A DNA stretch of 37,290 nt from a virus (taxonomy: Duplodnaviria > Heunggongvirae > Uroviricota > Caudoviricetes), in IMG/VR virus record IMGVR_UViG_3300028394_000043. One strand, 5' to 3'. Each line of letters starts with the position of its first letter. Positions within the stretch are counted from its first letter, which is position 1. Shown here piece by piece: positions 1 through 37,290 of this stretch. Under the pieces are notes generated by a model. That model was not told the DNA's origin, made no database searches, and saw nothing but the letters and a program-made list of their open reading frames with translations. The translations under genes were made by a program, and so were the position numbers.

Positions 1-144
1 AAATACTCCAACACCTACAGTAACTGAGACACCAACAAATACTCCAACACCTACAGTAACTGAGACACCAACAAATACTCCAACACCTACAGTAACTGAG
101 ACACCAACAAATACTCCAACACCTACAATAACTGAAACACCAAC
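1..144 (+). repeat. 36-bp coding tandem repeat (3 exact copies plus 1 variant), truncated by the window edge
   Basis: aaatactccaacacctacagtaactgagacaccaac at 1-36, 37-72 and 73-108; variant at 109-144. Confidence 0.95.
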
Positions 145-361
145 AAACACACCTACATCAACCATAACCCCAACTATAACTGAAACTCCGACAAACACAC
201 CTACATCAACCATAACCCCAACCACAACAGTAACACCTACTCAAACTAATACCCCAACCACAACAGTAACACCTACACCAACAGAACCATTCTTTATATT
301 AGCTCAGAATGGTAACATATTAACCGCTCAAAATGGTAATGGAATAGAATATCAACATTAA
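1..361 (+). CDS. 5'-truncated Pro/Thr-rich (mucin-like) putative virion protein, not in the ORF track
   Basis: Frame +2 is open from base 2 to TAA at 359-361. It reads ([12 protein letters not shown])x3, [12 protein letters not shown], further PT-rich sequence, then [26 protein letters not shown]. Confidence 0.9.
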
Positions 362-367
362 AATTAA

Positions 368-375
368 TATTTATA
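368..375 (+). promoter_or_regulatory. TATTTATA motif, candidate late promoter element
   Basis: Exact octamer 3 nt before the ATG at 379; it recurs before four other structural-type genes. Confidence 0.5.
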
Positions 376-378
376 AAA

Positions 379-885
379 ATGGGAAACACATTAATATCAG
401 ATTTACAAACATACACAGGAAACACAGATGGTGTTTTTCTTGTTATGAACAATAGTGGTAACACAGAATCATTCAAAATAACTAAAGAAACATTATTTAG
501 TGGGTATTCACAAAGTGCGATATCCCCCGTCACAGGAAGTTGGTCGTTATCTGCAGGTACAAATACTGTTGATTTTACAGTTCCGGCGGGTCAATCATAT
601 GTTATGTGGGTGAATGGAAATATTCCAAACGGTATTGTTAATTGGAACGCAACAGTAACATTATCAAATAATAATGTACCCGTAATAGGTGTACAATATG
701 GTTGGTATTATCTTGCTGGAAATGCTTTGGTGTTAACATCAATGCCAAGTCAAATAGTTGGAACTGCGGGGAGTATTATTACCTCATCTCCAGCGGTTTC
801 AAATACAAATACCTTCACATTTGGTATAACCAATAACAGTGGTTCACCTAAAACAGTATATTACGGATACGTTAAAATAAGTTAA
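379..885 (+). CDS. Putative virion fibre/decoration protein (N-terminal 'ISxL' module plus beta-rich head)
   Basis: 168 aa. The N-terminus MGNTLISDLQ..FLVMNNS..SFKITKETLF resembles the next gene's N-terminus; the C-terminus is Ser/Thr/Asn/Gly/aromatic-rich, consistent with beta strands. Confidence 0.6.
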   Translation: MGNTLISDLQTYTGNTDGVFLVMNNSGNTESFKITKETLFSGYSQSAISPVTGSWSLSAGTNTVDFTVPAGQSYVMWVNGNIPNGIVNWNATVTLSNNNVPVIGVQYGWYYLAGNALVLTSMPSQIVGTAGSIITSSPAVSNTNTFTFGITNNSGSPKTVYYGYVKIS

Positions 886-930
886 AATGTACGACACAAA
901 CACCAATCTAAATAATAAAAAAATAAAAAC

Positions 931-938
931 TATTTATA
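931..938 (+). promoter_or_regulatory. TATTTATA motif, candidate late promoter element
   Basis: aacTATTTATAta in the intergenic gap, 15 nt before the ATG at 954. Confidence 0.6.
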
Positions 939-953
939 TAAAAAACAAAAATT

Positions 954-1535
954 ATGTTAACAGGAAAAACAATTAGCGAATTACCATTACTACCTTACGA
1001 TGTATTAAATGATAATGTTTTAGTACCGGTAGAGGCAAGTGGTTCAACATATCACGTACCTTTCTCAGATATTTTACACAGACCTTTCGCTGCGTTATCT
1101 GATTCAACAACACAACCATTATCAGGGTCAAATATCCCAACGGTAATAACTTTTAATAGTGAAGATATTATAAGTGGAATAACATTAGTTAATAGTTCTC
1201 AAATTACGGTACCAAGACCGGGTGTTTATAGTGCCGGAATTTCAATGCAATTTGATAAAAATTCAGTAACATCAGCAGAACCAATATATGTTTGGACAAG
1301 AGTTAATGGTGAGGATGTACCAAATAGCGCGGGTGAGTTTAGATTATTAAATAATAATATAGAGGCGTTACCATATATCCCATATACGTATGAATTAAAT
1401 GCTGGTGATTACATTGAATTTGTTTTTGCATCCGTGGATGATGGTGTATTTTTATCATTCATACCATCATCAGATTCTCCATATGTGAGACCGGCATCAC
1501 CATCAATTACTTTAGAAATAAAACAAATAGCTTAA
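954..1535 (+). CDS. Putative fibre protein with C1q/TNF/BclA-C-like trimeric head
   Basis: 193 aa. ITFNS..ITVPRPGVY..MQF..VWTRVNGEDVPNS..YELNAGDYIEF matches the C1q/BclA-CTD jelly-roll pattern; N-terminal KTISELP module. Confidence 0.7.
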   Translation: MLTGKTISELPLLPYDVLNDNVLVPVEASGSTYHVPFSDILHRPFAALSDSTTQPLSGSNIPTVITFNSEDIISGITLVNSSQITVPRPGVYSAGISMQFDKNSVTSAEPIYVWTRVNGEDVPNSAGEFRLLNNNIEALPYIPYTYELNAGDYIEFVFASVDDGVFLSFIPSSDSPYVRPASPSITLEIKQIA

Positions 1536-1541
1536 TATTAA

Positions 1542-2567
1542 ATGTCCCAATCAATAATAATTGAAAGTATAAATTTTGATGGAGAATTCGCAACCATTAT
1601 ATTAACCCCTTATAATAATGATAATGTGGTTAATATTGGATTGCAACAATTACCATATACTTTTAATCCAAGTTTAATTAACCCATTACTTGAAATATAC
1701 GGGACATACACTTTAGTTATAAATGAAAATGGAAAGGATTGTACATATTTCTTAAATGTGATTAAGGAAACTCCTACTCCAACACCAACTATAACCCCAA
1801 CTAAAACTCCTACTCAAACACCGACAGTTACACCAAGTGTTACTGCAACATATAACCCTTGTCCGGACCCATCACAAACACCGGCACCGACGGAAACACC
1901 AACCAATACTCCAACACCTACGGTTACACCAACTGTTACACAAACGCCTTGTTACCCACCAAGTCCAACACCAACTAAAACACCAACACCTACACCGACT
2001 CCGGTGTATTTCGCATACTTATTTATTGAACCAACAACAGGAGCAACCGACATAGGTCAATGGATGTATGATAGTGGTTCTAACTTCTTTGGATTTACAA
2101 ATAATAGTCAGCCGTCTCAAAACCAAACTCAATTTAATGTTGATATGAATAATTATGTTGACTTTAGTGGTTGGACAAATGGATTATTCCCAACAATTAT
2201 TCAACAATCAGTACCACAACAAAGTGGTGGATTTGATACATTTGGTAATCCAATTGTTAGATACAATTTCTTAACAACTGAAGTTCTTGAAAATACTATT
2301 CCTGTAAATGCTTGGTATACTTGGATAATCCCAATATCATTAACTAATAACCAAACTCAAACGGCTATTGATGTAAATAGTGATGGTGACCCTAATAATT
2401 TAGCAACAGTATTAACTGATAGTACTATTAATACTTATACATTTACTTATACAGGAAACACTATTCAACCGGTAACTTATAAAGTTTATACAACTTTCCC
2501 GAGTAGAATTTTAGCATTAAACAATAATCAAAGTATTTATTTCAGAGGGAATACAGTTTCTCCGTAA
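1542..2567 (+). CDS. Pro/Thr-linker putative virion structural protein
   Basis: 341 aa: ~75-aa N-domain, ~80-aa TPTPT tract with two Cys, beta-rich C-domain; no signal peptide evident. Confidence 0.7.
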   Translation: MSQSIIIESINFDGEFATIILTPYNNDNVVNIGLQQLPYTFNPSLINPLLEIYGTYTLVINENGKDCTYFLNVIKETPTPTPTITPTKTPTQTPTVTPSVTATYNPCPDPSQTPAPTETPTNTPTPTVTPTVTQTPCYPPSPTPTKTPTPTPTPVYFAYLFIEPTTGATDIGQWMYDSGSNFFGFTNNSQPSQNQTQFNVDMNNYVDFSGWTNGLFPTIIQQSVPQQSGGFDTFGNPIVRYNFLTTEVLENTIPVNAWYTWIIPISLTNNQTQTAIDVNSDGDPNNLATVLTDSTINTYTFTYTGNTIQPVTYKVYTTFPSRILALNNNQSIYFRGNTVSP

Positions 2568-2585
2568 TATATAATTTGATAAAAT

Positions 2586-5500
2586 ATGTCTAATCTAAAC
2601 TATAAGAATCCTTTATCTCCTCTTATTGCGAATGGAAGTCAAACTTCATTACGTACAAGTACTTTTGGAACAACCTTTAGTGTCCTTAACACAGGTGGTT
2701 TTATGGAGGTTTACACCCTGAATGATTTAATTTATAACATACCAATTGGTAGTTATGGTGATATTGAATTTTCGGGGAATACAATTCCTATTCAATTATG
2801 GAAAGGAACGGGTAGTTCATTTTCTTTTGACACTTTAACTTTAAATTCAGACAATATTTCATCCGGAAGACGCCGTCTTGGGATGTTAGTTTATGTTTAC
2901 GAAACAAATCAAATTTATCAGTATTCAATAGATAATTACAATACTTTATGGTCGGACGCATTAGGTGCGTCAGGACCGGGTGGTAATACCGTAGTTGTAT
3001 CGGATTTTGGAACAACAATTAAAAATAATACACCTGAAGGTCAAACATTTATAAACACTTGGATAGACTCAACTATTGAGGGTGTTAATGGGGTTACAAG
3101 ACCAAACGCCAGATGGAGAATATTGGCAACATCTTCAACAGACATATATGTTACCGGAGGTACTTATTTTTCATCATCAACAACATTAGATTTATACAGA
3201 AATGATGGTGTGACAGTATCTATCACAGGATTTACATCCGGTGGTGGTGGTACAGGTACATCAGGTACAAGCGGAACTTCAGGAACAAGCGGTATAGATG
3301 GAACTTCAGGAACAAGCGGTATAGATGGAACTTCGGGTACTAGTGGTATAGATGGAACTTCGGGTACTAGTGGTATAGATGGAACTTCGGGTACGAGTGG
3401 TATTGACGGAACTTCAGGGACAAGTGGTACTTCAGGCACAAGTGGAATTGATGGTACTTCGGGAACGTCAGGTACTAGCGGAACTGCGGGTACGAGTGGA
3501 ATAGACGGAACTTCAGGAACAAGTGGAACATCAGGTACGAGTGGAATTGATGGTTCATCAGGAACAAGCGGTATAGATGGTTCATCCGGTACTAGTGGTA
3601 TAGATGGTTCATCAGGAACTTCAGGGTTAAGTGGTATTGACGGTATAGACGGAACATCAGGTACTTCTGGTACAAGCGGTACTTCAGGTACATCCGGAAC
3701 TTCAGGTACAGGTGGAACAAGTGGAACTGCCGGTACGTCAGGTACGAGTGGCACATCAGGAACAACGGGTACTTCAGGTACTAGTGGGACTTCAGGAACG
3801 TCAGGCACTAGCGGTACAACAGGAACAAGTGGGACTGCGGGTACATCAGGGACAAGTGGTATAGATGGAACATCAGGGACAAGTGGTATAGATGGTACTT
3901 CAGGTACATCAGGTATAGACGGAACATCAGGAACATCAGGATTAAGTGGTATTGACGGTTTAGACGGTACTTCAGGAACAAGTGGTACAAGCGGAACAAC
4001 AGGAACAAGTGGTACAAGCGGAACAACAGGAACAAGTGGTACAAGCGGAACAACAGGAACAAGTGGTACTTCAGGTTCAACGGGAACATCAGGGACTTCA
4101 GGTACTAGTGGAACGACAGGTACATCGGGAACTTCAGGTACAACAGGAACTAGTGGAACATCAGGAACAACAGGTACTAGCGGAACATCAGGAACTGCGG
4201 GTACTTCAGGTACGTCAGGAACTACCGGAACATCAGGAACATCAGGAACATCGGGTACTTCAGGTACAAGCGGTATAGATGGAACATCAGGTACGAGTGG
4301 AACTGCGGGTACAAGCGGAACTTCAGGGACTAGTGGAATAGACGGAACCTCAGGTACAAGCGGAATAGACGGAACATCAGGAACAAGTGGTATAGACGGA
4401 ACATCAGGTACAAGTGGTATAGACGGAACATCAGGAACATCAGGATTAAGTGGTATTGACGGTTTAGACGGTACTTCAGGAACAAGTGGTACAAGCGGAA
4501 CAACAGGAACTTCGGGTACTAGTGGAACAAGCGGAACATCAGGTACATCAGGTACATCAGGTACTAGTGGCACAACAGGAACAAGTGGAACAAGTGGAAC
4601 TGCGGGTACGTCAGGGACATCAGGTACTAGCGGCACAACAGGAACGTCAGGAACTGCGGGTACAAGTGGAACATCGGGTACATCAGGCACTTCAGGTTCT
4701 AGCGGAACATCAGGAACTAGCGGTACAAGTGGAACTTCAGGAACAAGCGGAACTTCGGGTACAAGTGGAACTTCGGGTACAAGTGGAACTTCGGGTACAA
4801 GTGGTACATCAGGTACAACAGGAACTTCGGGTACTAGTGGAACAAGCGGAACATCAGGTACATCAGGTACATCAGGTACTAGTGGCACAACAGGAACAAG
4901 TGGAACTTCAGGGACTAGTGGAATAGACGGAACATCAGGAACTAGCGGTACAAGTGGAACTTCAGGAACAAGCGGAACTTCGGGTACAAGTGGAACTTCA
5001 GGAACAAGCGGAACTTCGGGTACAAGTGGTACATCAGGTACAACAGGAACTTCGGGTACTAGTGGTACTGCGGGTACAAGTGGAACATCAGGTGTAAATG
5101 GTACTTCAGGAACATCAGGTACATCAGGTATAGACGGAACATCGGGTACTTCAGGTATAGATGGAACATCGGGCACTTCAGGTACAAGTGGTATAGATGG
5201 TACTTCAGGTACATCAGGAATAGACGGAACATCAGGAACAAGTGGTATAGATGGTACTTCAGGAACATCAGGAACATCAGGAACATCAGGGTTAAGTGGT
5301 GTAGATGGTATTGACGGAACTTCAGGAACATCAGGAACAACAGGTACTAGCGGAACATCAGGAACAAGCGGTACATCGGGTACTTCAGGAACAACAGGCA
5401 CTAGCGGAACATCAGGAACTGCGGGTACAAGTGGAACTTCAGGAACTACAGGCACTAGCGGAACAACCGGAACTTCAGGTACATCAGGAACTAGTGGCAC

Positions 5501-8500
5501 TTCAGGAACAAGTGGAACAACAGGTACATCGGGTACGAGTGGAACTTCGGGTACTTCAGGAACTAGCGGTACATCAGGAGTAAATGGTACTTCAGGAACA
5601 AGTGGTATAGATGGTACTTCAGGTACATCAGGTATAGACGGAACATCAGGTACGAGTGGTACAACAGGAACAAGCGGAACTTCAGGTACTGCTGGTACAA
5701 CAGGAACAAGTGGTACTTCAGGTACAAGCGGAACTGCGGGTACTTCAGGAACTAGTGGAACATCAGGAACAAGTGGAACTGCGGGTACAAGTGGTACTTC
5801 AGGTACAAGCGGAACATCGGGTTCTTCAGGAACTTCAGGTACTTCAGGTACTAGCGGCACAACAGGAACAAGTGGAACTGCGGGTACATCGGGGACAAGT
5901 GGTTCATCAGGAACAAGTGGGACTAGCGGTACTTCAGGAACTAGCGGAACATCAGGGGTAAATGGTTTATCAGGTGTAAATGGTACTTCAGGCACATCAG
6001 GAATAGACGGAACTTCAGGTACATCAGGAACTTCAGGTTCAACAGGAACTAGTGGAACATCAGGAACAAGTGGAACTTCAGGAACAAGTGGGACAACGGG
6101 TACAAGCGGAACATCAGGTACTAGTGGGACTTCAGGAACATCAGGAACAAGTGGAACTGCGGGTACAAGTGGTACATCAGGTTCAACAGGAACTTCAGGA
6201 ACTTCAGGGACTAGTGGAATAGACGGAACCTCAGGTACTTCAGGTACATCGGGAACTAGCGGTACTGCGGGTACATCCGGAACTTCGGGGACAACAGGAA
6301 CTAGCGGAACGTCAGGAACTGCGGGTACAAGTGGAACATCAGGAACAAGTGGAACTGCGGGTACAAGTGGTACATCAGGAACAAGTGGTATAGACGGAAC
6401 TTCAGGTACATCGGGAATAGACGGAACATCAGGAACAAGTGGTATAGACGGAACTTCAGGTACATCAGGGTTAAGTGGTGTAGATGGTATGGACGGAACT
6501 TCAGGCACATCAGGAACTAGCGGAACATCAGGTACTTCAGGTACATCGGGAACTTCAGGTACATCGGGAACTTCAGGTACATCGGGAACTTCAGGTTCAA
6601 GTGGAACATCGGGTACGAGCGGGACATCGGGTACAAGTGGAACTAGCGGTACAACAGGGACTAGTGGCACGTCAGGAACGAGTGGAACTGCGGGTACTAG
6701 TGGGACTTCAGGAACGTCAGGTACTAGTGGTACATCAGGTTCAACAGGTACATCAGGAACTAGTGGAACAACAGGAACAAGCGGTACGTCAGGTACAAGT
6801 GGAACTACCGGAACATCAGGAACAAGTGGTTCAACAGGAACTAGTGGGACTTCGGGGACAACAGGAACTTCGGGTACATCGGGAACTTCAGGTTCAGCGG
6901 GTACATCGGGCACAACCGGAACTAGCGGAACTTCAGGTATTAATGGTACTAACGGTACAAGCGGAACTTCAGGTACAACAGGAACTTCAGGTACAACAGG
7001 GACTAGCGGTACATCAGGGACAACAGGTACGTCAGGAACAAGTGGAACTAGTGGTACAACAGGGACATCAGGTACTTCAGGTGTAAATGGTTTATCAGGT
7101 GTAAATGGTACATCAGGAACTTCGGGTACAACAGGAACAAGCGGTACATCAGGAACTACGGGTACAAGTGGAACTGCGGGTACAACAGGAACAAGTGGAA
7201 CATCCGGTTCATCAGGAATAAATGGAACAAATGGTACGTCGGGAACTGCCGGTACAAGCGGAACATCAGGAACTGCTGGTACTTCAGGGACATCGGGAAC
7301 AAGTGGTACAACAGGAACTAGCGGCACGTCAGGAACGAGTGGAACATCGGGGACAAGTGGTTCTTCAGGAACAACAGGTACATCAGGAACTGCGGGTACG
7401 AGTGGAACATCGGGTACAAGTGGAACATCGGGTACAAGTGGAACATCGGGTACAAGTGGAACATCAGGAACTGCGGGTACAAGTGGAACTGCGGGTACTA
7501 GTGGAACAACAGGAACTTCGGGGACATCAGGTTCAACAGGTACTTCAGGAACATCAGGAATAAATGGAACTAACGGTACGTCGGGAACTACGGGGACTAG
7601 CGGAACTTCAGGAATAAATGGAACTAATGGTACAAGCGGAACATCGGGAACAACCGGGACAAGTGGTACTTCAGGAATAAATGGAACAAACGGTACGTCA
7701 GGAACTGCGGGTACATCAGGGACTTCAGGTACAAGCGGAACTGCGGGTACTTCAGGCTCAACAGGTACTTCAGGAACTGCGGGTACAAGTGGAACAACCG
7801 GAACTAGTGGTACATCAGGTACAAGTGGAACTAGCGGTACAACAGGGACATCCGGAACATCAGGTACAAGTGGTACTTCAGGTGTAAATGGTTTATCAGG
7901 AGTAAATGGTACTTCAGGAACTGCGGGGACAAGCGGTACATCAGGTACAAGTGGAACTTCAGGAATAAATGGAACTAACGGTACTTCAGGGACAACAGGA
8001 ACATCAGGTACTAGTGGAACATCGGGTACTTCAGGAACAAGCGGAACAACAGGTACATCGGGTACGAGTGGAACATCAGGCACTACAGGTACAAGCGGGA
8101 CTGCGGGTACTACAGGAACCTCAGGAACAAGTGGTACGTCAGGAACAAGTGGTACGTCAGGTACATCGGGTACGAGTGGAACATCGGGTACTTCAGGGAC
8201 AACAGGAACATCAGGTACTAGTGGAACATCGGGTACTAGTGGAACATCGGGTACTTCAGGAACAAGCGGAACAACAGGTACATCGGGAACTTCAGGAACA
8301 AGTGGAACTGCGGGAACATCAGGAACTACGGGTACGAGTGGGACTGCGGGAACAACAGGTACGTCAGGAACAAGTGGAACTGCGGGTACTTCAGGAACAA
8401 CAGGTACTTCAGGTTCAACGGGTACAAGTGGTACATCAGGTGTTAACGGAACTAATGGTACTAGCGGAACAACAGGGACATCCGGAACTTCGGGGACAAC

Positions 8501-20504: not shown

Positions 20505-20518
20505 TAAATTAAAATAAT

Positions 20519-25256: not shown

Positions 25257-25894
25257 AACATATCTTTAAATCTATATTCTCTTTCAATCCTATCATTTTC
25301 ATTCCCTTTTTGTATAATAATACAATTTGGTGCAAATGTAATCATTTTAATATTTAATGGATTTGAGTGTAAATTATAATGACTGTTGACGGTGTGATTA
25401 AGTTTTGTGAAATAATCAACAATATTTAGATTTCCGGTATTATAACCATATAATGTGGTATTAGGGTTCCAATAACTACATTCAATATCTTCAATAATAT
25501 AGACACCTCCGTCTTGTAATAAATTTTCAAATAAATAATAAAAACATTTTAATTGATGGTCGGCTATATGACTACCATCATCAATTATTATTTTACAATC
25601 ATCTATTTTAGATGAAACACTTATTAAATCATCTATATTACTTTGGTCTCCCATAAAAATTTCACCTCTTTCAGTAATTGAAGAATGTCCAATATCCATC
25701 CCATATATTTTAGCAAGACTAAAATATGTTTCCCATAATTTATAAGATTTTCCCTCATCAATACCAATCTCTAATAATGAGAACTTTTCATTTTTAAATT
25801 TATCTAAAAATATAGGATAAATTTCTGTATATTGATGATATGTTGATTTATCACAATCAAAATTATTTGATAATTTGGTCATTAATTCATTCAT
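25253..25894 (-). CDS. Class I SAM methyltransferase, MycE/TylE-like sugar O-methyltransferase type
   Basis: LLEIGIDEGKS (motif I), IYGMDI, GDQS, IIIDDGSH, GGVYIIEDI. Confidence 0.8.
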   Translation of the reverse strand: MNELMTKLSNNFDCDKSTYHQYTEIYPIFLDKFKNEKFSLLEIGIDEGKSYKLWETYFSLAKIYGMDIGHSSITERGEIFMGDQSNIDDLISVSSKIDDCKIIIDDGSHIADHQLKCFYYLFENLLQDGGVYIIEDIECSYWNPNTTLYGYNTGNLNIVDYFTKLNHTVNSHYNLHSNPLNIKMITFAPNCIIIQKGNENDRIEREYRFKDML

Positions 25895-25898
25895 AGTT

Positions 25899-27470: not shown

Positions 27471-27500
27471 TTAATTAAAAACTAATAGTTTATTATGTAT

Positions 27501-27530
27501 AAAATAATAAAAAGTCATTAATGAATCAAG
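27501..27530 (-). promoter_or_regulatory. Candidate host-type promoter for the minus-strand glycosylation cassette
   Basis: Minus strand reads cTTGATT-N17-TATTTT (overlapping TTATTATTTT), ~30 nt upstream of the ATG at 27470; AT-rich context weakens this. Confidence 0.3.
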
Positions 27531-27569
27531 TTTAAAAAAAAACTATTTATGGAAAAAGATTTATAATTA

Positions 27570-27577
27570 TATTTATA
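27570..27577 (+). promoter_or_regulatory. TATTTATA motif, with a second TATTTAT at 27544-27550
   Basis: Exact octamer 3 nt before the ATG at 27581, plus aacTATTTATg 30 nt upstream. Confidence 0.55.
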
Positions 27578-27580
27578 AGG

Positions 27581-29914: not shown

Positions 29915-29915
29915 T

Positions 29916-30143
29916 ATGAAAGTAACAATTTTAACAACAGAACAAAAAGACATTCTAAATAAACAAGAGGTGTGTCCAAAATTAACATTTAACCCGGTTC
30001 AGGATGTAAATGAAGATTGGGTTATTTCTGAAAAAGAAATAAATGATTGTGTTAACCCCAATTTTATGTGGGTAAAAGAATTAGTTTTAACTGATTGGTT
30101 AGGTTCGTATGTTCCACCAATAATAAGTGAAGAAGAAATATAA
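29916..30143 (+). CDS. Small acidic protein, possible assembly chaperone/partner of the upstream fibre
   Basis: 75 aa, starts 1 nt after the upstream stop; LTTEQKD..FNPVQD..WVIS..E..WVKEL. Function is inferred from position only. Confidence 0.55.
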   Translation: MKVTILTTEQKDILNKQEVCPKLTFNPVQDVNEDWVISEKEINDCVNPNFMWVKELVLTDWLGSYVPPIISEEEI

Positions 30144-30170
30144 ATAATGTCTTAACTCACAATAAGTAAT

Positions 30171-30200
30171 CTTTATATTTTCTAACTCATTATTATCTTT
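30171..30200 (+). promoter_or_regulatory. Candidate host-type promoter for the plus-strand glycosylation cassette
   Basis: CTTTAT-N13-TTATTATCTTT(tg), a near match to the Bacteroidota -7 element TAnnTTTG, ~20 nt before the ATG at 30220. Confidence 0.3.
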
Positions 30201-30219
30201 TGTTTAAAATAAGAGATAT

Positions 30220-31467
30220 ATGAAAATATTTGTACAGATAGCCGCCTATCGTGACCCCCAACTTATCCCAACAATTAAATCTATGTTGGAGAATGCTAAA
30301 AAACCTAAAAATGTTGTAATCGGAATTTGTCGTCAATATCATCCGGAAGATGGGTTTGATGATTTATCTGAATATGCGAAAGATAAACGATTCAGAGTTG
30401 TTGATGTTTTATACTCAGAATCAAAAGGTGTTTGTTGGGCAAGAAACCAAGTACAACAATTATATAAAGGTGAGGAGTATACCCTTCAAATTGATTCACA
30501 TATGAGATTTGAAAAAGATTGGGACGATACCTTAATCAAAATGATTAAACAACTTCAAAAGAAAGGTTTTGAGAAACCTTTATTAACAGGGTACGTATCT
30601 TCTTTTGACCCTGATAATGACCCGGCGATGAGAGTTAGAGAACCTTGGAGAATGTCTTTTGATAGATTCATTCCTGAAGGTGCTGTATTCTTCTTACCTG
30701 AAACAATTCCGGGATGGCAACAAATGACCGAACCGGTTACCGCAAGATTCTATTCCGCTCACTTCGCATTTACATTAGGTCAATTTAGTGTTGAGGTTCA
30801 ACACGACCCTGAGTTTTATTTCCACGGAGAAGAAATCTCAATAGCTGTTAGAGCATTCACTCACGGATATGATTTATTCCACCCACATAAAGTAGTTATT
30901 TGGCACGAGTATACTCGTAAGGGTAGAACCAAACAATGGGATGACGATAAGGATTGGGTAAACAAAAATAATTTATCTCACCAAAAGAATAGACAATTAT
31001 TCGGTATGGATGGTGAAGAGGTTACTATGGATTTTAGTAAATATGGGTTTGGTACCGAAAGAACCTTAAAAGACTATGAAATATATTCAGGTCTTAGATT
31101 TTCACATAGAGCAATTCAACAATATACATTAGACAAACATTATCCACCAAACCCAACAATCTACGAGACAGAAGAAGAATGGGAAGCAAGTTTTGCAAGT
31201 ATCTTCAAACATTGTATTGATGTTAGTTTTGGACAAGTACCTGAGAAAGATTATGATTTTTGGGTTGTCGCATTCCACGATGAGAATGATGAAACATTAT
31301 TTAGAAAAGATGCTGATATCAATGAGATTAATAATATGATGAGAGACCCTGATGGGTATTGTAAAGTTTGGAGAGAATTTCAAACAATACATAAACCAAA
31401 ATACTGGGTTGTTTGGCCGTTTAGTAAGTCAAAAGGTTGGTGTGATAGAATAACAGGTAATCTATAA
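30220..31467 (+). CDS. GT60-like (Gnt1 / Pfam 'GlcNAc') polypeptide N-acetylhexosaminyltransferase
   Basis: IFVQIAAYRDP, GVCWAR, YTLQIDSHMRF..WD, F.GEE...AVRAFTHGYDLFHP...WHEY are the characteristic GT60 motifs, including the DSH metal-binding motif. Confidence 0.88.
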   Translation: MKIFVQIAAYRDPQLIPTIKSMLENAKKPKNVVIGICRQYHPEDGFDDLSEYAKDKRFRVVDVLYSESKGVCWARNQVQQLYKGEEYTLQIDSHMRFEKDWDDTLIKMIKQLQKKGFEKPLLTGYVSSFDPDNDPAMRVREPWRMSFDRFIPEGAVFFLPETIPGWQQMTEPVTARFYSAHFAFTLGQFSVEVQHDPEFYFHGEEISIAVRAFTHGYDLFHPHKVVIWHEYTRKGRTKQWDDDKDWVNKNNLSHQKNRQLFGMDGEEVTMDFSKYGFGTERTLKDYEIYSGLRFSHRAIQQYTLDKHYPPNPTIYETEEEWEASFASIFKHCIDVSFGQVPEKDYDFWVVAFHDENDETLFRKDADINEINNMMRDPDGYCKVWREFQTIHKPKYWVVWPFSKSKGWCDRITGNL

Positions 31468-31471
31468 TCTA

Positions 31472-32200
31472 ATGGTAAAATTTAATGATATAAAGATTGC
31501 GGATATAGGGTTTTATATAAATCTTGATATACGTGAAGATAGAAAAGAAAAAATAGAATCTCAATTAATAGATTTTAATATCACCGGAGTGGAAAGACAC
31601 TCGGCGTTTTCAAAAACAAATTCTCCAACATTAAATTGTAAAACAAGTCATTTACAATTAATGAAAAAATTTTTAGAAACCGATTTTGAAACATTATTAA
31701 TATTAGAAGATGATTGTTTGTTCTTAGATGTATTAAAAGAAAACGGTGATGAAATATTTAACGAAATAAATAATACCGATTGGGATATATTTTGGTTAGG
31801 TTGTAAAAATAGGAGAATGCCATTAAAATATAAAAATAATTGTTACCGTGTTTCTTCAGTGTCTTACGCTCAATCATATTTAATTAGAAGAAAATTTTGT
31901 AAATTCATAATGGAAAATTATTCTGAAAGTAATTTTAATGGTCGTGAGTCGTTTGAACAACCTTCCGGCACTGATGAATTGTTATCATTAGCCCCATATG
32001 GTATAGATGTTGTTGCCCATCCTGAAAAATATGATTATTATAATTTAGACCAACCATTGGACGTATTACCAACAATTTATACATCATTGTGTTATAAGTA
32101 CGCATTGACAACACAATATTCATCGTATAGTAATTTATGGCATTTTGTTGTAAATTATGAAGAGTACATTAAACAAGGATTCCCAAATGAAGAAGAATAA
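31472..32200 (+). CDS. GT25 family glycosyltransferase
   Basis: FYINLDIREDR, CKTSH, LILEDD, WDIFWLG, AQSYLI. Confidence 0.85.
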   Translation: MVKFNDIKIADIGFYINLDIREDRKEKIESQLIDFNITGVERHSAFSKTNSPTLNCKTSHLQLMKKFLETDFETLLILEDDCLFLDVLKENGDEIFNEINNTDWDIFWLGCKNRRMPLKYKNNCYRVSSVSYAQSYLIRRKFCKFIMENYSESNFNGRESFEQPSGTDELLSLAPYGIDVVAHPEKYDYYNLDQPLDVLPTIYTSLCYKYALTTQYSSYSNLWHFVVNYEEYIKQGFPNEEE

Positions 32201-32937
32201 TGAAGTTAGTCTCAATTACTTGGTCTAATGACCAAACCTTTGATTATAAAAATACGATTTTATATAAGTCGTTTATAAAACATAACGATGAAAATAATTT
32301 TATTAACATACATTTTAACAGAAACGAATATTCCGAACTTGAAAAAGACTTTGAGAATAATTACGGATATCAGTTTGAGTTTATCCTTTATAAAATATTT
32401 TTATTAAAAGATAAATTAAAAGAAATTGATGATAACATTATTGTTTATTGTGACACAAACGATGTTGTTTGTTTAGATAATATTAATAACATAGATTATA
32501 GAGAGGGTATTATTTTTTCGTCTGAAAAAAACAAATATCCTACGGATAATTCTTCGTGGAGTCCTGTATCTTCATATTCTGAATGGAATCTAAATAATAG
32601 TCTTTACCTAAATTCTGGTTTAATTGTTACAACTAAAGAATTATATCTTAAGTTATTAGATAATGTGATTGAGAATGTTATTCCATTAAACTATAAGAAT
32701 TTTGGTGGAGACCAAGGGGTTTATACCTATTACTACATTAATAATCTTTCGCCAAATATTAAGTTAGACGACACTTGCGAATTTTTTGTGAGTACATATT
32801 TGTCTTCAAGTAGTTGGTTTGAAAAGATAGGTGATAGACTAAAACATAAATTAACAAACACGACACCAATGTTTGTCCACGATAATGGATGGAATTATGG
32901 TAGTCCAAGAATAATAGAAGGATTTAATTTAATATGA
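32200..32937 (+). CDS. PLOD/LH3 glycosyltransferase-domain-like protein (paralog 1)
   Basis: VYCDTNDVV, IIFSSEKN.YP, YLNSGLIV, GDQ..YT, IKLD..C.FF, TPMFVHDNG follow the LH3 GT-domain motif order. Confidence 0.8.
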   Translation: MKLVSITWSNDQTFDYKNTILYKSFIKHNDENNFINIHFNRNEYSELEKDFENNYGYQFEFILYKIFLLKDKLKEIDDNIIVYCDTNDVVCLDNINNIDYREGIIFSSEKNKYPTDNSSWSPVSSYSEWNLNNSLYLNSGLIVTTKELYLKLLDNVIENVIPLNYKNFGGDQGVYTYYYINNLSPNIKLDDTCEFFVSTYLSSSSWFEKIGDRLKHKLTNTTPMFVHDNGWNYGSPRIIEGFNLI

Positions 32938-33668
32938 AAAAACACGCAGTAATTACAACATATTATTGTTATGGTTGTCAAAAACCATCACAACAAGATT
33001 TAAAAAATAAATTTAATTATGACGGTGATGTAGAAGACATCTACGTTAATTTTTCAAATGAATTTGACCCGTTTAATATGGATTCAATACCAAATGTTGG
33101 TGTTACAAGAAGACGGGATTTAGTTTACGGTAAAATATTTGTTTTAAGAAAATTTATTGAGGAAAATATTTTAGGAAAATACGAATATCTTTCACACATT
33201 GATTATAGCGATACTAAATTCAAAAGAAGTTGTGAGGAGATGGTTGATAAATTTATCCAAACGGGTGAGGATATTATTGTATCCACCGAAAAGAATTGTT
33301 GGCCTTACTTAGATGCCGTATCTAAATGGATGGAAACTAATCTTGAAGATAAGGAATTCTTCTATTTAAATTCCGGAGCTATCATCTCTAAAACAAACAC
33401 CTTTTATGAAATCATTAAAGAATTGGAAAACATCTGTTTAACAGTAGACTTAGATTTTTGGGACGACCAAGGTGTTTGGCAATACTATCACTTAAAAGTG
33501 AAAGAACTTAATAAAGATTCAATATGTGATTATTTCTTTTCAACAGCAATGTTAGATGAAACATATTATACACTTGAAAATAATACAATAAAAACTAAAT
33601 TTAACACGGAGCCGTATCTAATTCACGATAATTCAAGCTTCTCACTAAACCTAATTAAACAATTTTAA
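32934..33668 (+). CDS. PLOD/LH3 glycosyltransferase-domain-like protein (paralog 2)
   Basis: HIDYSDT, IIVSTEKNCWP, YLNSGAII, DDQGVWQ, KDSICDYFF, EPYLIHDN. Confidence 0.8.
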   Translation: MKKHAVITTYYCYGCQKPSQQDLKNKFNYDGDVEDIYVNFSNEFDPFNMDSIPNVGVTRRRDLVYGKIFVLRKFIEENILGKYEYLSHIDYSDTKFKRSCEEMVDKFIQTGEDIIVSTEKNCWPYLDAVSKWMETNLEDKEFFYLNSGAIISKTNTFYEIIKELENICLTVDLDFWDDQGVWQYYHLKVKELNKDSICDYFFSTAMLDETYYTLENNTIKTKFNTEPYLIHDNSSFSLNLIKQF

Positions 33669-33669
33669 T

Positions 33670-34275
33670 ATGAATATTACAGGATTTTTTGTCTATAGAA
33701 ATTTAACGACAATGCAACACACTTCAATTGAAGAAAAATTTACAAAATTACTTACAGAGATAAAACCGGTTAAGGTTTTAGAGATTGGTACATCGTCAGG
33801 TGGATTAACATTATTATTGAGAGATATTTTAGACAACAATGGTTTAGAATCAACAAGATTGGTTAGTTACGATGTTAATGACCCGGTATATTTAAGACAC
33901 TACGTTAACGAAGGTTCTAAAATTGAGTTAAGAGTTGAAAACATTTTTAATCATCAATACGACAAGTTAGAAAATGGTCAAGAAGTTATAGACATTATCA
34001 CATCAGAAGGTACCACATTAGTATTATGTGATGGTGGTAGTAAAAAGAATGAGTTTAGAATATTGTCTGACTACATAAAAGTTGGTGATGTTATAATGGC
34101 TCACGATTATGCCCCAAATGAAACTTACTTCCAAGAACATATAAACAACAAAGTTTGGAATTGGTTAGAGATACAAGATACCGACATTAACGAATCTTGT
34201 GTTAAAAATAATTTAGTTCCGTTTATGGAAGAAGACTTCAGACAAGTTGTATGGGCTTGTAAAATTAAACAATAA
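33670..34275 (+). CDS. Class I SAM methyltransferase (CmcI/Methyltransf_24-like, probable sugar O-methyltransferase)
   Basis: VLEIGTSSGGLT, VSYDV, VLCDGG, GDVIMAHD. Confidence 0.75.
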   Translation: MNITGFFVYRNLTTMQHTSIEEKFTKLLTEIKPVKVLEIGTSSGGLTLLLRDILDNNGLESTRLVSYDVNDPVYLRHYVNEGSKIELRVENIFNHQYDKLENGQEVIDIITSEGTTLVLCDGGSKKNEFRILSDYIKVGDVIMAHDYAPNETYFQEHINNKVWNWLEIQDTDINESCVKNNLVPFMEEDFRQVVWACKIKQ

Positions 34276-34284
34276 TCAATTTAT

Positions 34285-35970
34285 ATGAATACAGATATTA
34301 CAATAGTAACCGGTCTTTGGGACTTAGGTAGAGGAGATTTAGATTCTTGGGCTAAGAGAGATTTTAATTATTATAAAGAACGTTTTTTTGAAATGTTAGA
34401 GGTAGATGTTCAAATGTGTATATGGATACCTTCAGATTTAAAATCAGATGTTGAACGTATCAGAGGAGATAAACCTACAAGGATTTTTATTAAAGAAGTT
34501 TCTGACTTTAAAAATTGGAACCCATTTTTTGATAGAATACAAGAGATTAGACAAAAAGAAAGTTGGTTATCTCAAGCCGGTTGGTTAAGAGAATCACCAC
34601 AAGCCACTTTAGAATCATACAACGCGATGATGTTTACTAAAATGTTTATGTTAAACGATTCAGCAATAACCAATCCATTTAACAGTAAATATTTTTATTG
34701 GATTGATGGTGGTTTAACAAACACTGTTAATAAAGGGTATTTCCAAAAAGACTTAGTCTTAGATAACTTAAGTAATTTTATGTCTCAAAAAGATGCTAAG
34801 TATGTTCATTTAGCATATCCTTACGAGGGTAACACAGAGATTCACGGGTTTGAAAGAACTGCGATGGCAAGATATTGTGATACAGATTATGTTGGATACG
34901 TTTGTAGAGGAGGATTCTTTGGTGGGGATAAAGATACGATACATCAACTAAACTCATTGTATTATTCTGTAATGGAAAATACTTTAAGAAGTGGATATAT
35001 GGGAGCTGATGAATGTTTATTCACAATATTAACTCACACTTATCCTAATTTAATTTATAAGTTTGATATTGAGGGGAATGGTCTTGTGTGGCCGTTTTTT
35101 GAGGAACTTAAAAAGTATGACCAAGAATTTGTTAAAAACAATAAGGTATCAAAAATAAATACTGATAATGTGGGGTTATATGTAATAACATTCAATTCTC
35201 CAAAACAGTTAGAAGTATTAATTGATTCTATGTTAGAGTATGATAAGGATTTTATAGAAAAACCTAAAAAATATTTATTAGATAATTCAACAGATTTAAC
35301 AACAACACCAAGATATATTGAACTATGTGAACAATACGGTTTTGAACACATTAAAAAAGATAATATTGGAATAGTTGGTGGTAGAGTATTTGTTGCTGAC
35401 CATTTTAACAATACAGACTTAGATTGTTATTTTTGGTTTGAGGACGATATGGCGTTTTATCCGAAGAAGGGAGAAGTTTGTAAAAATGGATTCAATAGAT
35501 ATACCGATAAATTATATCAAAAAAGTTTAGAGATTATTAAAAAAGAAAATTTTGATTTTTTAAAACTTAATTTTACCGAATTTTTTGGTGATAATAGTGT
35601 TCAATGGAGTTGGTATAATGTACCACAAGAGTTTAGACAAAAACATTGGCCAAATAATACAAAATTACCTGTACAAGGTTTAGACCCAAACTCACCTAAA
35701 ACAAAATTTAATGAAATTAGTGTGTATAAAGGATTGGGTTATATTACCGGAGAGATTTATTTATCAAACTGGCCTATAGTATTAACTAGAGAGGGTAACT
35801 ATAAATGTTATTTAGAAACTACGTGGGCACATCCATTTGAACAAACTCTAATGTCATATTGTTATCAAGAAACTGTTAAGGGAAATGTTAATCCGGGTCT
35901 ATTGTTATTAACACCAACCGAACACGATAGATTTGATTTTTATGATGCTAAATTAAGAAAAGAAAGTTAA
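34285..35970 (+). CDS. Fusion: HtrL/YibB (WlaTC)-like glycosyltransferase + GT2-like domain
   Basis: N-half: TIVTGLWDLGRG, KMFML..AI..NPF.S.YF.WIDGG, GGFFGG, ADE. C-half: LYVITFNSP, LLDNS, FWFEDD. Confidence 0.75.
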   Translation: MNTDITIVTGLWDLGRGDLDSWAKRDFNYYKERFFEMLEVDVQMCIWIPSDLKSDVERIRGDKPTRIFIKEVSDFKNWNPFFDRIQEIRQKESWLSQAGWLRESPQATLESYNAMMFTKMFMLNDSAITNPFNSKYFYWIDGGLTNTVNKGYFQKDLVLDNLSNFMSQKDAKYVHLAYPYEGNTEIHGFERTAMARYCDTDYVGYVCRGGFFGGDKDTIHQLNSLYYSVMENTLRSGYMGADECLFTILTHTYPNLIYKFDIEGNGLVWPFFEELKKYDQEFVKNNKVSKINTDNVGLYVITFNSPKQLEVLIDSMLEYDKDFIEKPKKYLLDNSTDLTTTPRYIELCEQYGFEHIKKDNIGIVGGRVFVADHFNNTDLDCYFWFEDDMAFYPKKGEVCKNGFNRYTDKLYQKSLEIIKKENFDFLKLNFTEFFGDNSVQWSWYNVPQEFRQKHWPNNTKLPVQGLDPNSPKTKFNEISVYKGLGYITGEIYLSNWPIVLTREGNYKCYLETTWAHPFEQTLMSYCYQETVKGNVNPGLLLLTPTEHDRFDFYDAKLRKES

Positions 35971-35985
35971 TTTCATATATTAAAG

Positions 35986-35993
35986 TATTTATA
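35986..35993 (+). promoter_or_regulatory. TATTTATA motif, candidate late promoter element
   Basis: aagTATTTATAat, 13 nt before the ATG at 36007. Confidence 0.6.
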
Positions 35994-36006
35994 ATAAAAA
36001 CTTTAG

Positions 36007-36423
36007 ATGGAATTTTTTATTAAAAAGAAAACAACTTTACCGGTATTAAAATTACAAGTAGTTAAAGACGGTAGAAGCGACTATAATCATTTTATGAAAG
36101 AGATAGAATTATCTTCTATCTTTTTCTCTATGGTTGATGTTGAGACCGGGTTAATAAAGATAAATTCAAAACTTGCCGGGTTTGTTGAAAAAACTTTTTC
36201 TGACCCAAACGCAGAACCTGAATACTATATTTATTACCAATTTACATCAATTGATACTAATAAAGTTGGTAGATATGAAGGTCAATTCCTTCTTAGAAAC
36301 GATGACGGGGTATTAATAGTACCAATCAGAGAACAATTATTTATTAATGTTCAAGAATCATTTGTTGCTGATGATTTAATTTACGACACACCACACACTT
36401 CAGAATTTCCTTGCTGTAACTAA
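36007..36423 (+). CDS. Putative virion structural protein, BppU N-terminal-like Ig fold
   Basis: 138 aa. FFIKK..TLP.L at the start and YYQF...DT..VG.Y.GQF......LIVP near the end resemble BppU-type baseplate domains. Confidence 0.5.
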   Translation: MEFFIKKKTTLPVLKLQVVKDGRSDYNHFMKEIELSSIFFSMVDVETGLIKINSKLAGFVEKTFSDPNAEPEYYIYYQFTSIDTNKVGRYEGQFLLRNDDGVLIVPIREQLFINVQESFVADDLIYDTPHTSEFPCCN

Positions 36424-36450
36424 ATAAAATATTTTTTTGTCAATTCTAAC

Positions 36451-36458
36451 TATTTATA
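36451..36458 (+). promoter_or_regulatory. TATTTATA motif, candidate late promoter element
   Basis: aacTATTTATAgt, 15 nt before the ATG at 36474. Confidence 0.6.
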
Positions 36459-36473
36459 GTTAAAAAACATTGT

Positions 36474-37290
36474 ATGGCAAATATTAAGTATTTAGTAAAA
36501 AATTTAAGTTCAAGTATTGTATTGTTGAGTTACCAAAACTCTAATGACAATATGTGGAATTACCAAATTGTATTAAGACCGGGACAGACTAAAAATATTT
36601 GGTGTGTAGAAGGTACTTTATCACATTCAGGAAGAAATGGTGACGTTAGTATTACTATTGATAATAGTACTTGTAGTATTACACCTACAACTTCTCCAAC
36701 ACCTATTGTAGGTGACTCAAACCCATTGGTGTTAACACCGGTTTATTATCCGGGGTCTATTGGTGTGGTTTATACGTTATCATCTAAATATCCTTCAGAT
36801 ACTGATATTACCGTTAATTTTACTAACATATTAGGAACTATAGATAATGGTGGAATTTCTATTAAAAGTTCTGTGACTTTATTTACCGGAGAAAAATCGG
36901 CTTCAACTCAAGTTGTAATTGACGGTGATTTTACTACATTAAATGATTCAACATTATTCTCTGATGTTGTAGTAACAACAGATAGTCCTTCCCAATATTT
37001 TGAAACACCAATATCGGCACCACCATCAGTTCTTAGACCTATAAAACCTATTGACCCAATTTACTATGTTTCATATTTAGTTGGAAGTTGTTGTTACTCT
37101 GGAGTGACAGGTATTATGTCGTTACCTATGGGTGGTTTTATGTCTGTTGATTGGATAAATACTATTGTAGTAGACTCAACAGGAAACTGTTATTACGTTA
37201 TTAGTGAATATTCGCCTATATTGTTTCCTGACCCGGCGACTATGAAACCTAAAATTTTGACTTATGCAAACATTTACTATAAAAATTGTG
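36474..37290 (+). CDS. 3'-truncated modular Cys/Pro-Thr putative virion protein, not in the ORF track
   Basis: Open from the ATG at 36474 to the window end: MANIKYLVKNLSSS..NIWCVEGT..CSITPTTSPTP..GSCCYSG..GNCYYVI..YKNC. Confidence 0.85.
   Translation, partial: MANIKYLVKNLSSSIVLLSYQNSNDNMWNYQIVLRPGQTKNIWCVEGTLSHSGRNGDVSITIDNSTCSITPTTSPTPIVGDSNPLVLTPVYYPGSIGVVYTLSSKYPSDTDITVNFTNILGTIDNGGISIKSSVTLFTGEKSASTQVVIDGDFTTLNDSTLFSDVVVTTDSPSQYFETPISAPPSVLRPIKPIDPIYYVSYLVGSCCYSGVTGIMSLPMGGFMSVDWINTIVVDSTGNCYYVISEYSPILFPDPATMKPKILTYANIYYKNC

Follow-up and report, generated by a model that had tools for sequence, protein, structure and literature searches.

A candidate virion O-glycosylation system encoded beside a giant collagen-like fibre gene in a freshwater jumbo phage

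We analysed a 37,290-base stretch of tailed-phage DNA (IMG/VR record IMGVR_UViG_3300028394_000043), hereafter the window, in which a giant gene for a collagen-like fibre lies beside an island of glycosyltransferase (GT) and methyltransferase genes. The window is densely coding and AT-rich, with a G+C content of ~24-39% outside the giant gene. From the left, it contains the Pro/Thr-tailed end of an upstream gene, two small genes, a gene with a Pro/Thr linker, the giant gene, a small gene and then a four-gene cassette of enzymes on the minus strand (21214-27470). These are followed by a gene encoding Pro/Thr tracts and Cys modules, six enzyme genes that form a plus-strand cassette (30220-35970), a further small gene and the start of another Pro/Thr-tract gene. 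A preliminary description of the window had read this arrangement as a system for O-glycosylating the virion, with at least five Ser/Thr-rich genes interleaved with cassettes carrying ~11 GT and three methyltransferase domains. Both counts held: by composition, the giant gene and four Pro/Thr-tract genes are Ser/Thr-rich, and profile and fold searches verified 10 GT domains, with one more tentative, and three methyltransferases.

The giant gene (2586-20504, plus strand) encodes a protein of 5,972 aa. Its conserved N-terminal, non-collagen domain (aa 1-220; 2586-3245) shares 84% identity with the homologue in G003, a complete relative of 322 kb (31.5% G+C; 362 open reading frames, ORFs) whose module order is the same as that of the window, and 45-59% with those in other relatives. 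Collagen repeats always follow this domain, which is probably the end that attaches to the virion. Residues 221-5707 (3246-19706) constitute a collagen-like shaft according to both a G-X-Y count and a match to the Pfam Collagen profile (PF01391). The C-terminal globular tip of ~265 aa (19707-20504) is 38% identical to the C-terminus of gp047, annotated as the tail fibre of Flavobacterium phage immuto, and is probably the trimerisation and receptor-binding end. In G003, a related tip is carried by a different collagen gene, which indicates shuffling of tips and is a pattern expected if fibre tips are exchangeable. A conserved N-terminal anchor, a repetitive shaft and an exchangeable tip homologous to that of a known fibre together point to a phage tail fibre.

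The shaft comprises 5,487 residues in 1,829 G-X-Y triplets without interruption, with Gly at every third position. The most frequent triplet is GTS (1,192), followed by GTT (272) and then GTA, GVN, GTN, GIN, GID and others. Thr occupies the X position in 87% of triplets and Ser or Thr the Y position in 84%, giving 3,180 Ser/Thr residues alongside 46 Asp, four Arg, four Pro and neither Lys nor Glu. The shaft lacks the known stabilisers of bacterial collagens, Pro/Hyp and salt bridges between Lys and Glu or Asp. All four prolines lie within a 19-residue motif, GANGVDGAVGPTGASGTNG, which recurs four times (protein positions 2954, 3416, 3923 and 4721) at spacings of 462-798 residues. Over its first quarter, the shaft is dominated by GIDG motifs, and over the remainder by GINGTNG and GVNGTNG motifs. 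At the triple-helix rise of 0.286 nm per residue, the predicted length of the shaft is ~1.57 μm, if fully triple-helical.

An array of this kind could be an artefact of assembly or annotation: were it collapsed, expanded or chimeric, or were the real ORF that of the other strand, no 1.6-μm fibre would exist. Two contigs of one sample seem, from their lengths and alignment, to end and start near 16,445-16,499, and no assembly other than that of the window contains the join at this point. Coverage of the array by Logan contigs extends to every bin but is fragmentary, with short-sided "joints" induced by the repeats. The total length of the array is therefore that of the window's own assembly alone. 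Nevertheless, the array is not a simple repeat artefact. Its longest exact DNA repeat is 105 nt, its self-identity is ~71%, and many synonymous codon combinations are used. Window positions 2-10,912, of which ~8.3 kb are inside the gene, were reproduced at 99.75-100% identity by contigs from three other lake samples, and positions 20,220-37,290, including the last 285 nt of the gene, at 100% by another contig. Relatives hold versions of the fibre gene of 1,856 to 3,195 aa. Public gene callers choose the opposite strand; however, the 5,437-aa ORF there is a (V/L/E/D)-V-P shadow frame only, lacking flanking domains, whereas the G-X-Y triplets share their reading frame with conserved N- and C-terminal domains. 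On this evidence, an artefact is very improbable.

Several further observations concern the array and its annotation. Compared with window positions 5-10912, a contig from another sample (L085) has a single in-frame gap of 27 nt (three triplets) in the array and is otherwise identical, which suggests that array length is polymorphic in the population. JGI gene calls pick the minus-strand shadow frame (window 3164-19477; L084-L086), as does the GenBank record of the cultured Microcystis phage Mel-JY01 (L199 1-2298). Such wrong-strand calls imply that GTS-collagen fibres are systematically missed in databases. Many viral contigs (behind L141-L159 and L073-L081) terminate inside collagen arrays, and the 318-kb record G005 has collagen matches at both of its ends, as if assembly had split one gene. 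Contig breaks of this kind bias tests of presence and absence.

A triple glycosyltransferase of 1,029 aa (tri-GT) is encoded by a gene that converges on the fibre gene (21214-24303, minus strand), an orientation shared by most relatives. Its N-terminal domain (aa 1-310) is a retaining GT-A domain of GT6/GT8 fold, modelled by AF2 with a predicted local distance difference test (pLDDT) score of 89, in which D107-x-D109 is invariant over 24 homologues. The middle domain (~320-660) belongs to GT4 according to Pfam. The third (696-1025) is of the Aah/TibC type: it scored 289.9 bits against TIGR04414, for which the cut-off is 200, and matched TibC (PDB 4rap) in phmmer with E=8.3e-48. The four-Cys motif of the iron finger is kept, with CNGCW, WCPEHK and FECH aligning with CYGCW, WCPRHK and FECT of TibC. 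Profile searches of the window revealed no autotransporter near this gene; its neighbour is the collagen-like gene.

Three more enzymes are encoded in the minus-strand cassette. A 318-aa protein (24300-25256; AF2 pLDDT 72.5) has a GT-A/nucleotide-diphospho-sugar transferase fold and a poorly modelled β-rich C-terminal part. Its predicted structure resembles KdsB, GnT-I, COLGALT1, LH3 and PBCV-1 A64R in Foldseek searches, and other phages carry this module in fusions with GT4, GT2, GT25 and TibC-like proteins. A 213-aa protein (25253-25894) is a sugar O-methyltransferase of the MycE/TylE type (PDB 8ia9, E=1.3e-16; 3ssm, E=2.5e-15), MycE and TylE being O-methyltransferases of macrolide sugars. 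The last, of 523 aa (25899-27470), is a fusion of Methyltransf_24 and GT34 domains (Pfam E=7e-13 and 2e-13, respectively).

We then examined the neighbourhood of TibC-like genes in other phages. A domain scan yielded 443 viral relatives, and clustering of the best 80 at 95% identity gave 43 groups. A GTS/GSS-rich collagen ORF accompanies the gene in 23 of the groups, positioned as it is in the window: on the opposite strand and 0.05-5.6 kb downstream. Another 13 groups have at least 8 kb of flanking sequence but lack such a neighbour, and several of those contigs hold (GTS)n arrays farther off. Among five large relatives, the collagen and TibC-like genes occur together in the same four and are both absent from the fifth, the 91%-complete G002. 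A cross-table of the two genes over 26 fragments ascertained through GT60 drew on contigs that are 23-64% complete and end inside collagen genes.

The pairing extends beyond the relatives of the window. In Mel-JY01, a frame of 1,016 codons containing 202 G-X-Y triplets (77 GTS, 57 GSS) at record positions 2-3049 lies 1.7 kb upstream of a gene for a 1,226-aa TibC-like fusion protein, at 4750-8430; GenBank labels the latter a methyltransferase and, for the collagen region, chooses the wrong strand. The 735-kb phage LR756501 has a GTS/GSS collagen-like ORF ~3.6 kb from its TibC-like gene. Nine of the 14 closest matches in GTDB also have GTS/GSS collagen ORFs, mostly immediately adjacent to the TibC-like gene, on contigs of metagenome-assembled genomes (MAGs) labelled Bacteroides, Ignavibacteriaceae, Polaromonas, Burkholderiaceae, Methylococcaceae and Saprospirales. 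Among 65 more distant bacterial matches in GTDB, one has a collagen ORF, of GAT type.

A maximum-likelihood tree ("quick" method) of 126 TibC-like domains was divided by a branch with a support of 100 into 62 sequences (all 46 viral ones, the window and 15 MAG contigs) and 64 bacterial ones. Of the 32 collagen-adjacent members, 31 belong to the mostly phage-borne clade and one to the 64 bacterial sequences; the collagen is GTS/GSS-rich in 31 of the 32. The collagen label changes nine times on the tree, whereas 1,000 shuffles gave 25 changes on average and never fewer than 17. Such counts are inflated by kinship. A 639-aa "cytidylyltransferase-like" gene of Mel-JY01 (L199 11243-13162), ~3 kb from its TibC-like gene, could be a source of activated sugar; the LPS (lipopolysaccharide) of the host of Mel-JY01 is said to have no heptose. 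Among bacterial bins, the closest match to the TibC-like domain (60% identity) is L440, an 8-kb contig of a MAG of Sediminibacterium, a freshwater genus of Bacteroidota; this contig could be a phage fragment binned by mistake, or could point to the host.

The plus-strand cassette begins with a GT60-family glycosyltransferase of 415 aa (30220-31467), which scored 245.5 bits against PF11397 (cut-off 21; E=1.5e-72). This protein shares 76-94% identity with the best 80 of its 248 IMG/VR relatives and 46-49% with proteins of Xanthomonas and Stenotrophomonas jumbo phages; it had no sequence match among solved structures. The preliminary description had named GT60 and Aah/TibC as families that glycosylate protein hydroxyls directly, and the PF11397 and TIGR04414 matches confirmed membership in both. 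A 242-aa GT25-family enzyme follows (31472-32200; PF01755, 31.7 bits, cut-off 24), whose homologues in relatives are patchy and of 25-35% identity. Next are two paralogous, stand-alone PLOD-type GT-A enzymes of 244-245 aa (32200-32937 and 32934-33668; PF25342, E=8e-12 and 5e-9, respectively). The PLOD matches span the GT domain only, without the hydroxylase domain, and these genes are limited to the window's own contigs, plus one weak match in L054. They are succeeded by a 201-aa class-I methyltransferase (33670-34275) that resembles Methyltransf_24 (E=4.7e-5; 24.6 bits, just under the cut-off of 26.3) and has homologues of 41-71% identity in many relatives. Pairwise BLAST among the three methyltransferases of the window detected no relationship. 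The last enzyme (561 aa; 34285-35970) combines an HtrL/YibB (WlaTC)-type GT (PF09612, E=1.3e-18; TIGR02192) with a C-terminal domain. The assignment of this C-terminal half as GT2-like is tentative, as it is based on language-model features alone. A full-length homologue of the HtrL-like protein occurs in nearly all relatives, and ORF330 of XacN1, a cultured jumbo phage of Xanthomonas, is 38.5% identical to it.

We scored the conservation of these genes across 80 GT60-centred loci. The genes for GT60, the two-domain HtrL-like protein and a 138-aa protein were nearly always present, and those for GT25, the PLOD-type GTs, tri-GT and the methyltransferases were variable. These sequence comparisons mark GT60 and the HtrL-like GT as the conserved core of the island and GT25 and the PLOD-type GTs as accessories, and the core pair predates the lineage of the window. 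In XacN1 (L180, 213153-232496), a carbamoyltransferase gene and two ORFs of unknown function separate the GT60 gene from the HtrL-like one. The intervening slot seems to be an insertion site for lineage-specific genes of glycan tailoring.

This variability raises the possibility that only the two initiating enzymes, the Aah/TibC-type domain and GT60, modify virion proteins, the other GTs and methyltransferases being unrelated or decaying cargo rather than parts of a single pathway. The GT25 and PLOD-type genes are indeed confined to the window's nearest kin, other relatives carry different inserts, and XacN1 has its carbamoyltransferase in that slot. Decaying cargo would not be expected to consist of intact, tightly packed genes co-oriented in two cassettes, as is the case here. 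Moreover, a homologue of the methyltransferase-GT34 fusion, 50% identical, again lies beside a tri-GT gene in a 108-kb phage contig with direct terminal repeats (L273/G047), and fusions of TibC-like and methyltransferase domains are common in the viral clusters. We regard a role for the initiating enzymes only as quite unlikely.

GT60 genes commonly have a Pro/Thr-tract gene as their neighbour. In 31 of 40 informative clusters (97% dereplication), an ORF of this kind, on the strand of GT60, ends no more than 400 nt upstream of it; such ORFs account for 11 of the 362 in G003. The G003 Pro/Thr-tract protein adjoining GT60 has domains like those of gp051, a "structural protein" of immuto. When divergent GT60 genes (37-49% identity) were ascertained separately, a Pro/Thr-tract ORF was found within ~1 kb in five of 10 contigs; L526 is a sixth case, but with a closer GT60 (66% identity). 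In the window, the gene that ends ~300 nt before GT60 (27581-29914, plus strand) encodes a 777-aa protein in which long Pro/Thr tracts connect Cys-rich modules; it has 22% Thr, 10% Pro, 10% Ser and 237 residues in tracts. Its position and composition make it a candidate GT60 acceptor. The protein holds 22 Cys, and its small Cys modules alternate with linkers.

The same alternation is seen in the product of the gene at the right edge of the window (36474-37290, plus strand), the N-terminal 272 aa of a Cys-containing, Pro/Thr-tract protein of 1,216 aa. The Pro/Thr signal of this part is weak; the full gene, in L001, has 164 tract residues. At the left edge, positions 2-361 (plus strand) encode a Pro/Thr tract (42% Thr, 18% Pro) and a short globular end, the C-terminus of a protein whose gene is cut by the window edge. 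At the equivalent position in G003, a 1,252-aa Pro/Thr-tract ORF adjoins a homologue of the gene at 954-1535. The fourth Pro/Thr gene (1542-2567, plus strand) lies just upstream of the fibre gene; its 341-aa product (phrog_15511; 18% Thr, 12% Pro) consists of an N-terminal domain, a Pro/Thr linker and a C-terminal domain. A homologue of 75% identity is directly upstream of the G003 collagen gene.

A reciprocal test was performed on contigs chosen by DNA pattern alone, namely (GTS)6 (n=47) or (TP)7 (n=42), using the Fisher test. TibC-like genes (TIGR04414) were found in 15 of the 47 (GTS)6 contigs versus none of the 42 (TP)7 contigs (p=2.2e-5). By contrast, GT60 genes (PF11397) were found in three of the (GTS)6 contigs versus 10 of the (TP)7 contigs (p=0.033). 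This reciprocity favours enzyme-substrate specificity over a general effect of glycosylating lineages. We had also considered that the TibC-like enzyme and GT60 divide the Ser and Thr residues of one repeat between them. This idea was rejected, as the reciprocal test indicates that they act on different proteins.

We propose that the island O-glycosylates the phage's own virion proteins before assembly, through two enzyme-substrate modules. From the gene content, family membership, synteny and co-occurrence described above, we infer the acceptors, sugars, order of steps and function as follows. Virion proteins would fold in the host cytoplasm, out of reach of periplasmic O-glycosylation by the host. 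The phage Aah/TibC domain, of the bacterial autotransporter heptosyltransferase (BAHT) family, would prime Ser/Thr residues of the (G-T/S-S)n collagen-like fibre, and the fused retaining GT-A and GT4 domains, with the neighbouring GT-A-fold and GT34 proteins, would extend the glycan. In the second module, GT60 with the HtrL-like GT would initiate the glycosylation of neighbouring structural proteins at their Pro/Thr, "mucin-like" linkers, and the variable GT25 and PLOD-type GTs would extend the glycans. The three methyltransferases, one of the MycE/TylE type, would cap the glycans, and the donors would be sugar nucleotides of the host. On the fibre, the glycans would stabilise a triple helix of up to ~1.6 μm and shield it. 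As the shaft contains neither Lys nor Glu and only four Pro, glycosylated Ser/Thr is the most plausible stabiliser of a triple helix. We assign a probability of roughly 0.6 to this reading, under which phage-made virion glycoproteins are likely. A more specific version, in which a phage-specific TibC-like clade is dedicated to (G-T/S-S)n collagen, dense glycosylation replaces hydroxyproline and salt bridges, thereby permitting protease-shielded fibres of micrometre length in many aquatic phages, and a second, independent GT60 module makes viral mucins, is offered tentatively, at somewhat less than even odds.

During infection, the island might instead act on glycans of the host envelope, such as the LPS core, O-antigen or capsule, or on other acceptors outside the virion, with a block to superinfection or a changed cell surface as possible outcomes; its proximity to the fibre gene would then mark a site where accessory genes accumulate. 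The HtrL/YibB, GT25, GT4, GT9-like and GT34 families are mostly known from the synthesis of LPS and polysaccharides, and a comparison of jumbo phages interpreted GT clusters of cyanophages as modifiers of outer polysaccharides (PMC7824862). The content of the island is also highly variable among close relatives, as expected of an arms race at the cell surface. However, the two best-assigned enzymes come from families that O-glycosylate proteins, members of the TibC-like clade are accompanied by collagen genes in unrelated phages and in MAG contigs, and the repeat specificities of TibC-like and GT60 genes are reciprocal. Profile searches of the window also found no flippase, polymerase or lipid-carrier gene. 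Finally, virions of XacN1 are glycosylated: they contain at least two glycoproteins positive for periodic-acid-Schiff staining, which its authors proposed to be made by phage GTs (PMC5852040; 2018). An action on host glycans is therefore judged unlikely, though the least unlikely of the alternatives.

Several points weigh against glycosylation of virion proteins as proposed above. The characterised Aah/TibC enzymes modify autotransporter β-helices with ADP-heptose, and the heptose-pathway gene gmhA was not found in the five large relatives. The HtrL, GT25, GT4 and GT9-type families being best known from LPS synthesis, lipid-linked acceptors are possible. In about one-third of informative TibC-like loci, the nearest 10 kb hold no collagen gene; a TibC-like gene is absent from four of eight near-complete phage genomes with GTS-collagen, and GT60 from eight of 10 complete (TP)7 genomes. 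The enzymes are therefore not obligatory for the repeats. The preliminary description had suggested co-occurrence and synteny as a check; this yielded the TibC-collagen and GT60-Pro/Thr links as well as these many repeat genomes without the enzymes. The associations partly reflect synteny inherited within abundant freshwater lineages, and many contigs are fragmentary.

The description had further called the pathway complete. No gene for sugar-nucleotide synthesis is present in the window, and neither gmhA nor NTP_transferase was found in the five large relatives, one of which has a cytidylyltransferase-like gene. The pathway is therefore incomplete in sugar activation. Overall, the glycosylation reading of the earlier proposal is plausible and partly supported, through the two enzyme-repeat pairings and the precedent of XacN1; its completeness and its parallel with animal collagen enzymes are not supported.

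If the proposed glycosylation occurs, the BAHT family would gain a new class of acceptor and a home in phages. It would explain how collagen-like shafts that are proline-free and uncharged, which are common in aquatic phages, are able to fold. Large phages would also build their own glycan coat at a scale so far known only for giant eukaryotic viruses. As both Mel-JY01, which has TibC-like and collagen genes, and XacN1, which has GT60 and HtrL-like genes, are in culture, the hypothesis is directly testable.

The source of the window is an AT-rich, contractile-tailed jumbo phage of ~320 kb from lakes. The viral origin assumed in the preliminary description was confirmed by the 248 IMG/VR relatives of the GT60 protein, on contigs of up to 322 kb that are complete according to CheckV and carry tail sheath and tube genes. 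A tail sheath gene (1,130-1,273 aa) is present in all five large relatives, in the same half of the genome as the module. In G003, the tube gene adjoins the sheath gene, and both products share ~35% identity with those of immuto. Each of the three relatives with a completeness of 91% or more (G002, G003 and G005) encodes a full-length DnaK (for example, G003 311090-312871). Megablast of the enzyme half of the window against 50,697 phage records gave no match. The phage is probably a jumbo myovirus of the "moraphage" lineage with a host among the Bacteroidota, the window being its fibre module. "Moraphages" were named recently and are predicted to infect Bacteroidota (PMC12619734); the ~320-kb size, freshwater origin, DnaK and multiple core GTs match their description.

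The small genes of the window, all on the plus strand, are partly conserved with the module. The 168-aa product of 379-885 has homologues of 54-82% identity in some relatives and no match in Pfam or PHROG. The 193-aa protein encoded at 954-1535, upstream of the fibre gene, has a 50% identical homologue at the same position in G003 and others beside collagen genes in L229, L265, L276 and L310; its only profile match is a sub-threshold one to BclA_C (PF18573; E=0.011, 16 bits, cut-off 38). Between the fibre gene and the minus-strand cassette, 20519-21217 encodes a Ser/Thr-rich (28%) protein of 232 aa, which has a 71% identical homologue in L004 and no family match in profile searches. The conserved 138-aa protein (36007-36423) is always encoded after the HtrL-like gene, with 49-93% identity in most relatives, and its gene also lies beside divergent GT60 genes in L519, L524 and L526.

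Among described phages, XacN1 is a close counterpart. The order of its orthologues of GT60 (48%) and of the two-domain HtrL-like protein (38.5%) matches that in the window, and they lie at a locus that adjoins baseplate wedge genes and a 3,313-aa structural gene. It differs in having no TibC-like, collagen or Pro/Thr-tract gene at this locus and two annotated GTs only. Phages Xoo-sp13, Stenotrophomonas CM1 and RAS14 were compared for the GT60 orthologue alone (46-49%). As an instance of phage-encoded virion glycosylation, the window is thus linked to XacN1 by orthology and gene order, glycoproteins having been demonstrated in XacN1 alone. The preliminary description knew of no such phage system; virion glycosylation by phage GTs had been proposed for XacN1 in 2018, and what stands is that neither a BAHT-collagen nor a GT60-Pro/Thr pairing is reported in any of the viruses compared. 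Literature searches on phage TibC or O-heptosyltransferases returned nothing relevant, and those on GT60 in viruses nothing on phages.

The Aah/TibC-type domain resembles the BAHT enzymes in exceeding the TIGR04414 cut-off, in its match to TibC and in the Cys residues of the iron finger. BAHT enzymes are soluble and cytoplasmic and transfer a sugar directly onto Ser residues of proteins. The domain in the window differs in being phage-borne, fused to two GTs, placed in a separate, well-supported clade and devoid of a nearby autotransporter. GT60 enzymes of protists are polypeptide O-α-GlcNAc transferases that include the initiating enzyme of Trypanosoma cruzi mucins and the Gnt enzymes of Dictyostelium. 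The phage enzyme shares with them a strong match to PF11397 and candidate acceptors that are Thr/Pro-rich, mucin-like tracts. Unlike them, it would act in the bacterial cytoplasm and is paired with an HtrL-like GT, and its acceptor is suggested by gene adjacency.

Two collagen systems offer further parallels. BclA of the Bacillus anthracis exosporium and the cuticle collagen of Riftia likewise have G-X-Thr repeats without hydroxyproline and bear O-glycans on Thr; those of BclA include methylated sugars. These collagens rely on glycosylated Thr, and (Gly-Pro-Thr)10 is a random coil unless its Thr is galactosylated (PMC11923368). By analogy, glycosylation may be structurally required for the shaft described here. 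BclA and the Riftia collagen are Pro-rich (GPT) and far shorter, and their enzymes are unrelated to BAHT and GT60, whereas the collagen of the window has Thr in X and Ser in Y, with glycosylation predicted. As for animal collagens, glycosylated by COLGALT1 (GT25) and LH3/PLOD3, the likeness lies in the GT25 and PLOD-type GT-A genes side by side. The animal acceptor is hydroxylysine, whereas the window encodes a collagen without Lys and no 2OG-Fe hydroxylase domain. The preliminary reading of the two as collagen-type enzymes was rejected on these grounds and because the genes, restricted to the closest kin, do not track collagen in relatives.

Mycobacteriophages, chloroviruses and the fibrils of mimivirus provide further viral parallels, with cytoplasmic GTs of viral origin, some fused to methyltransferases and encoded near structural genes, that decorate capsid, tail or fibril proteins. 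Chlorovirus A064R, for instance, is a GT-GT-methyltransferase protein, and virion glycosylation by phage GTs has been reported for mycobacteriophages, as cited in PMC12619734. The GT families and acceptors of these viruses are different ones. In scale, the window combines ~11 GT domains with >3,000 potential sites on one protein. The system proposed for the window would be of a known kind, phage-encoded glycosylation of the virion, and its new element is a phage TibC-like clade tied to Ser/Thr-saturated collagen fibres.

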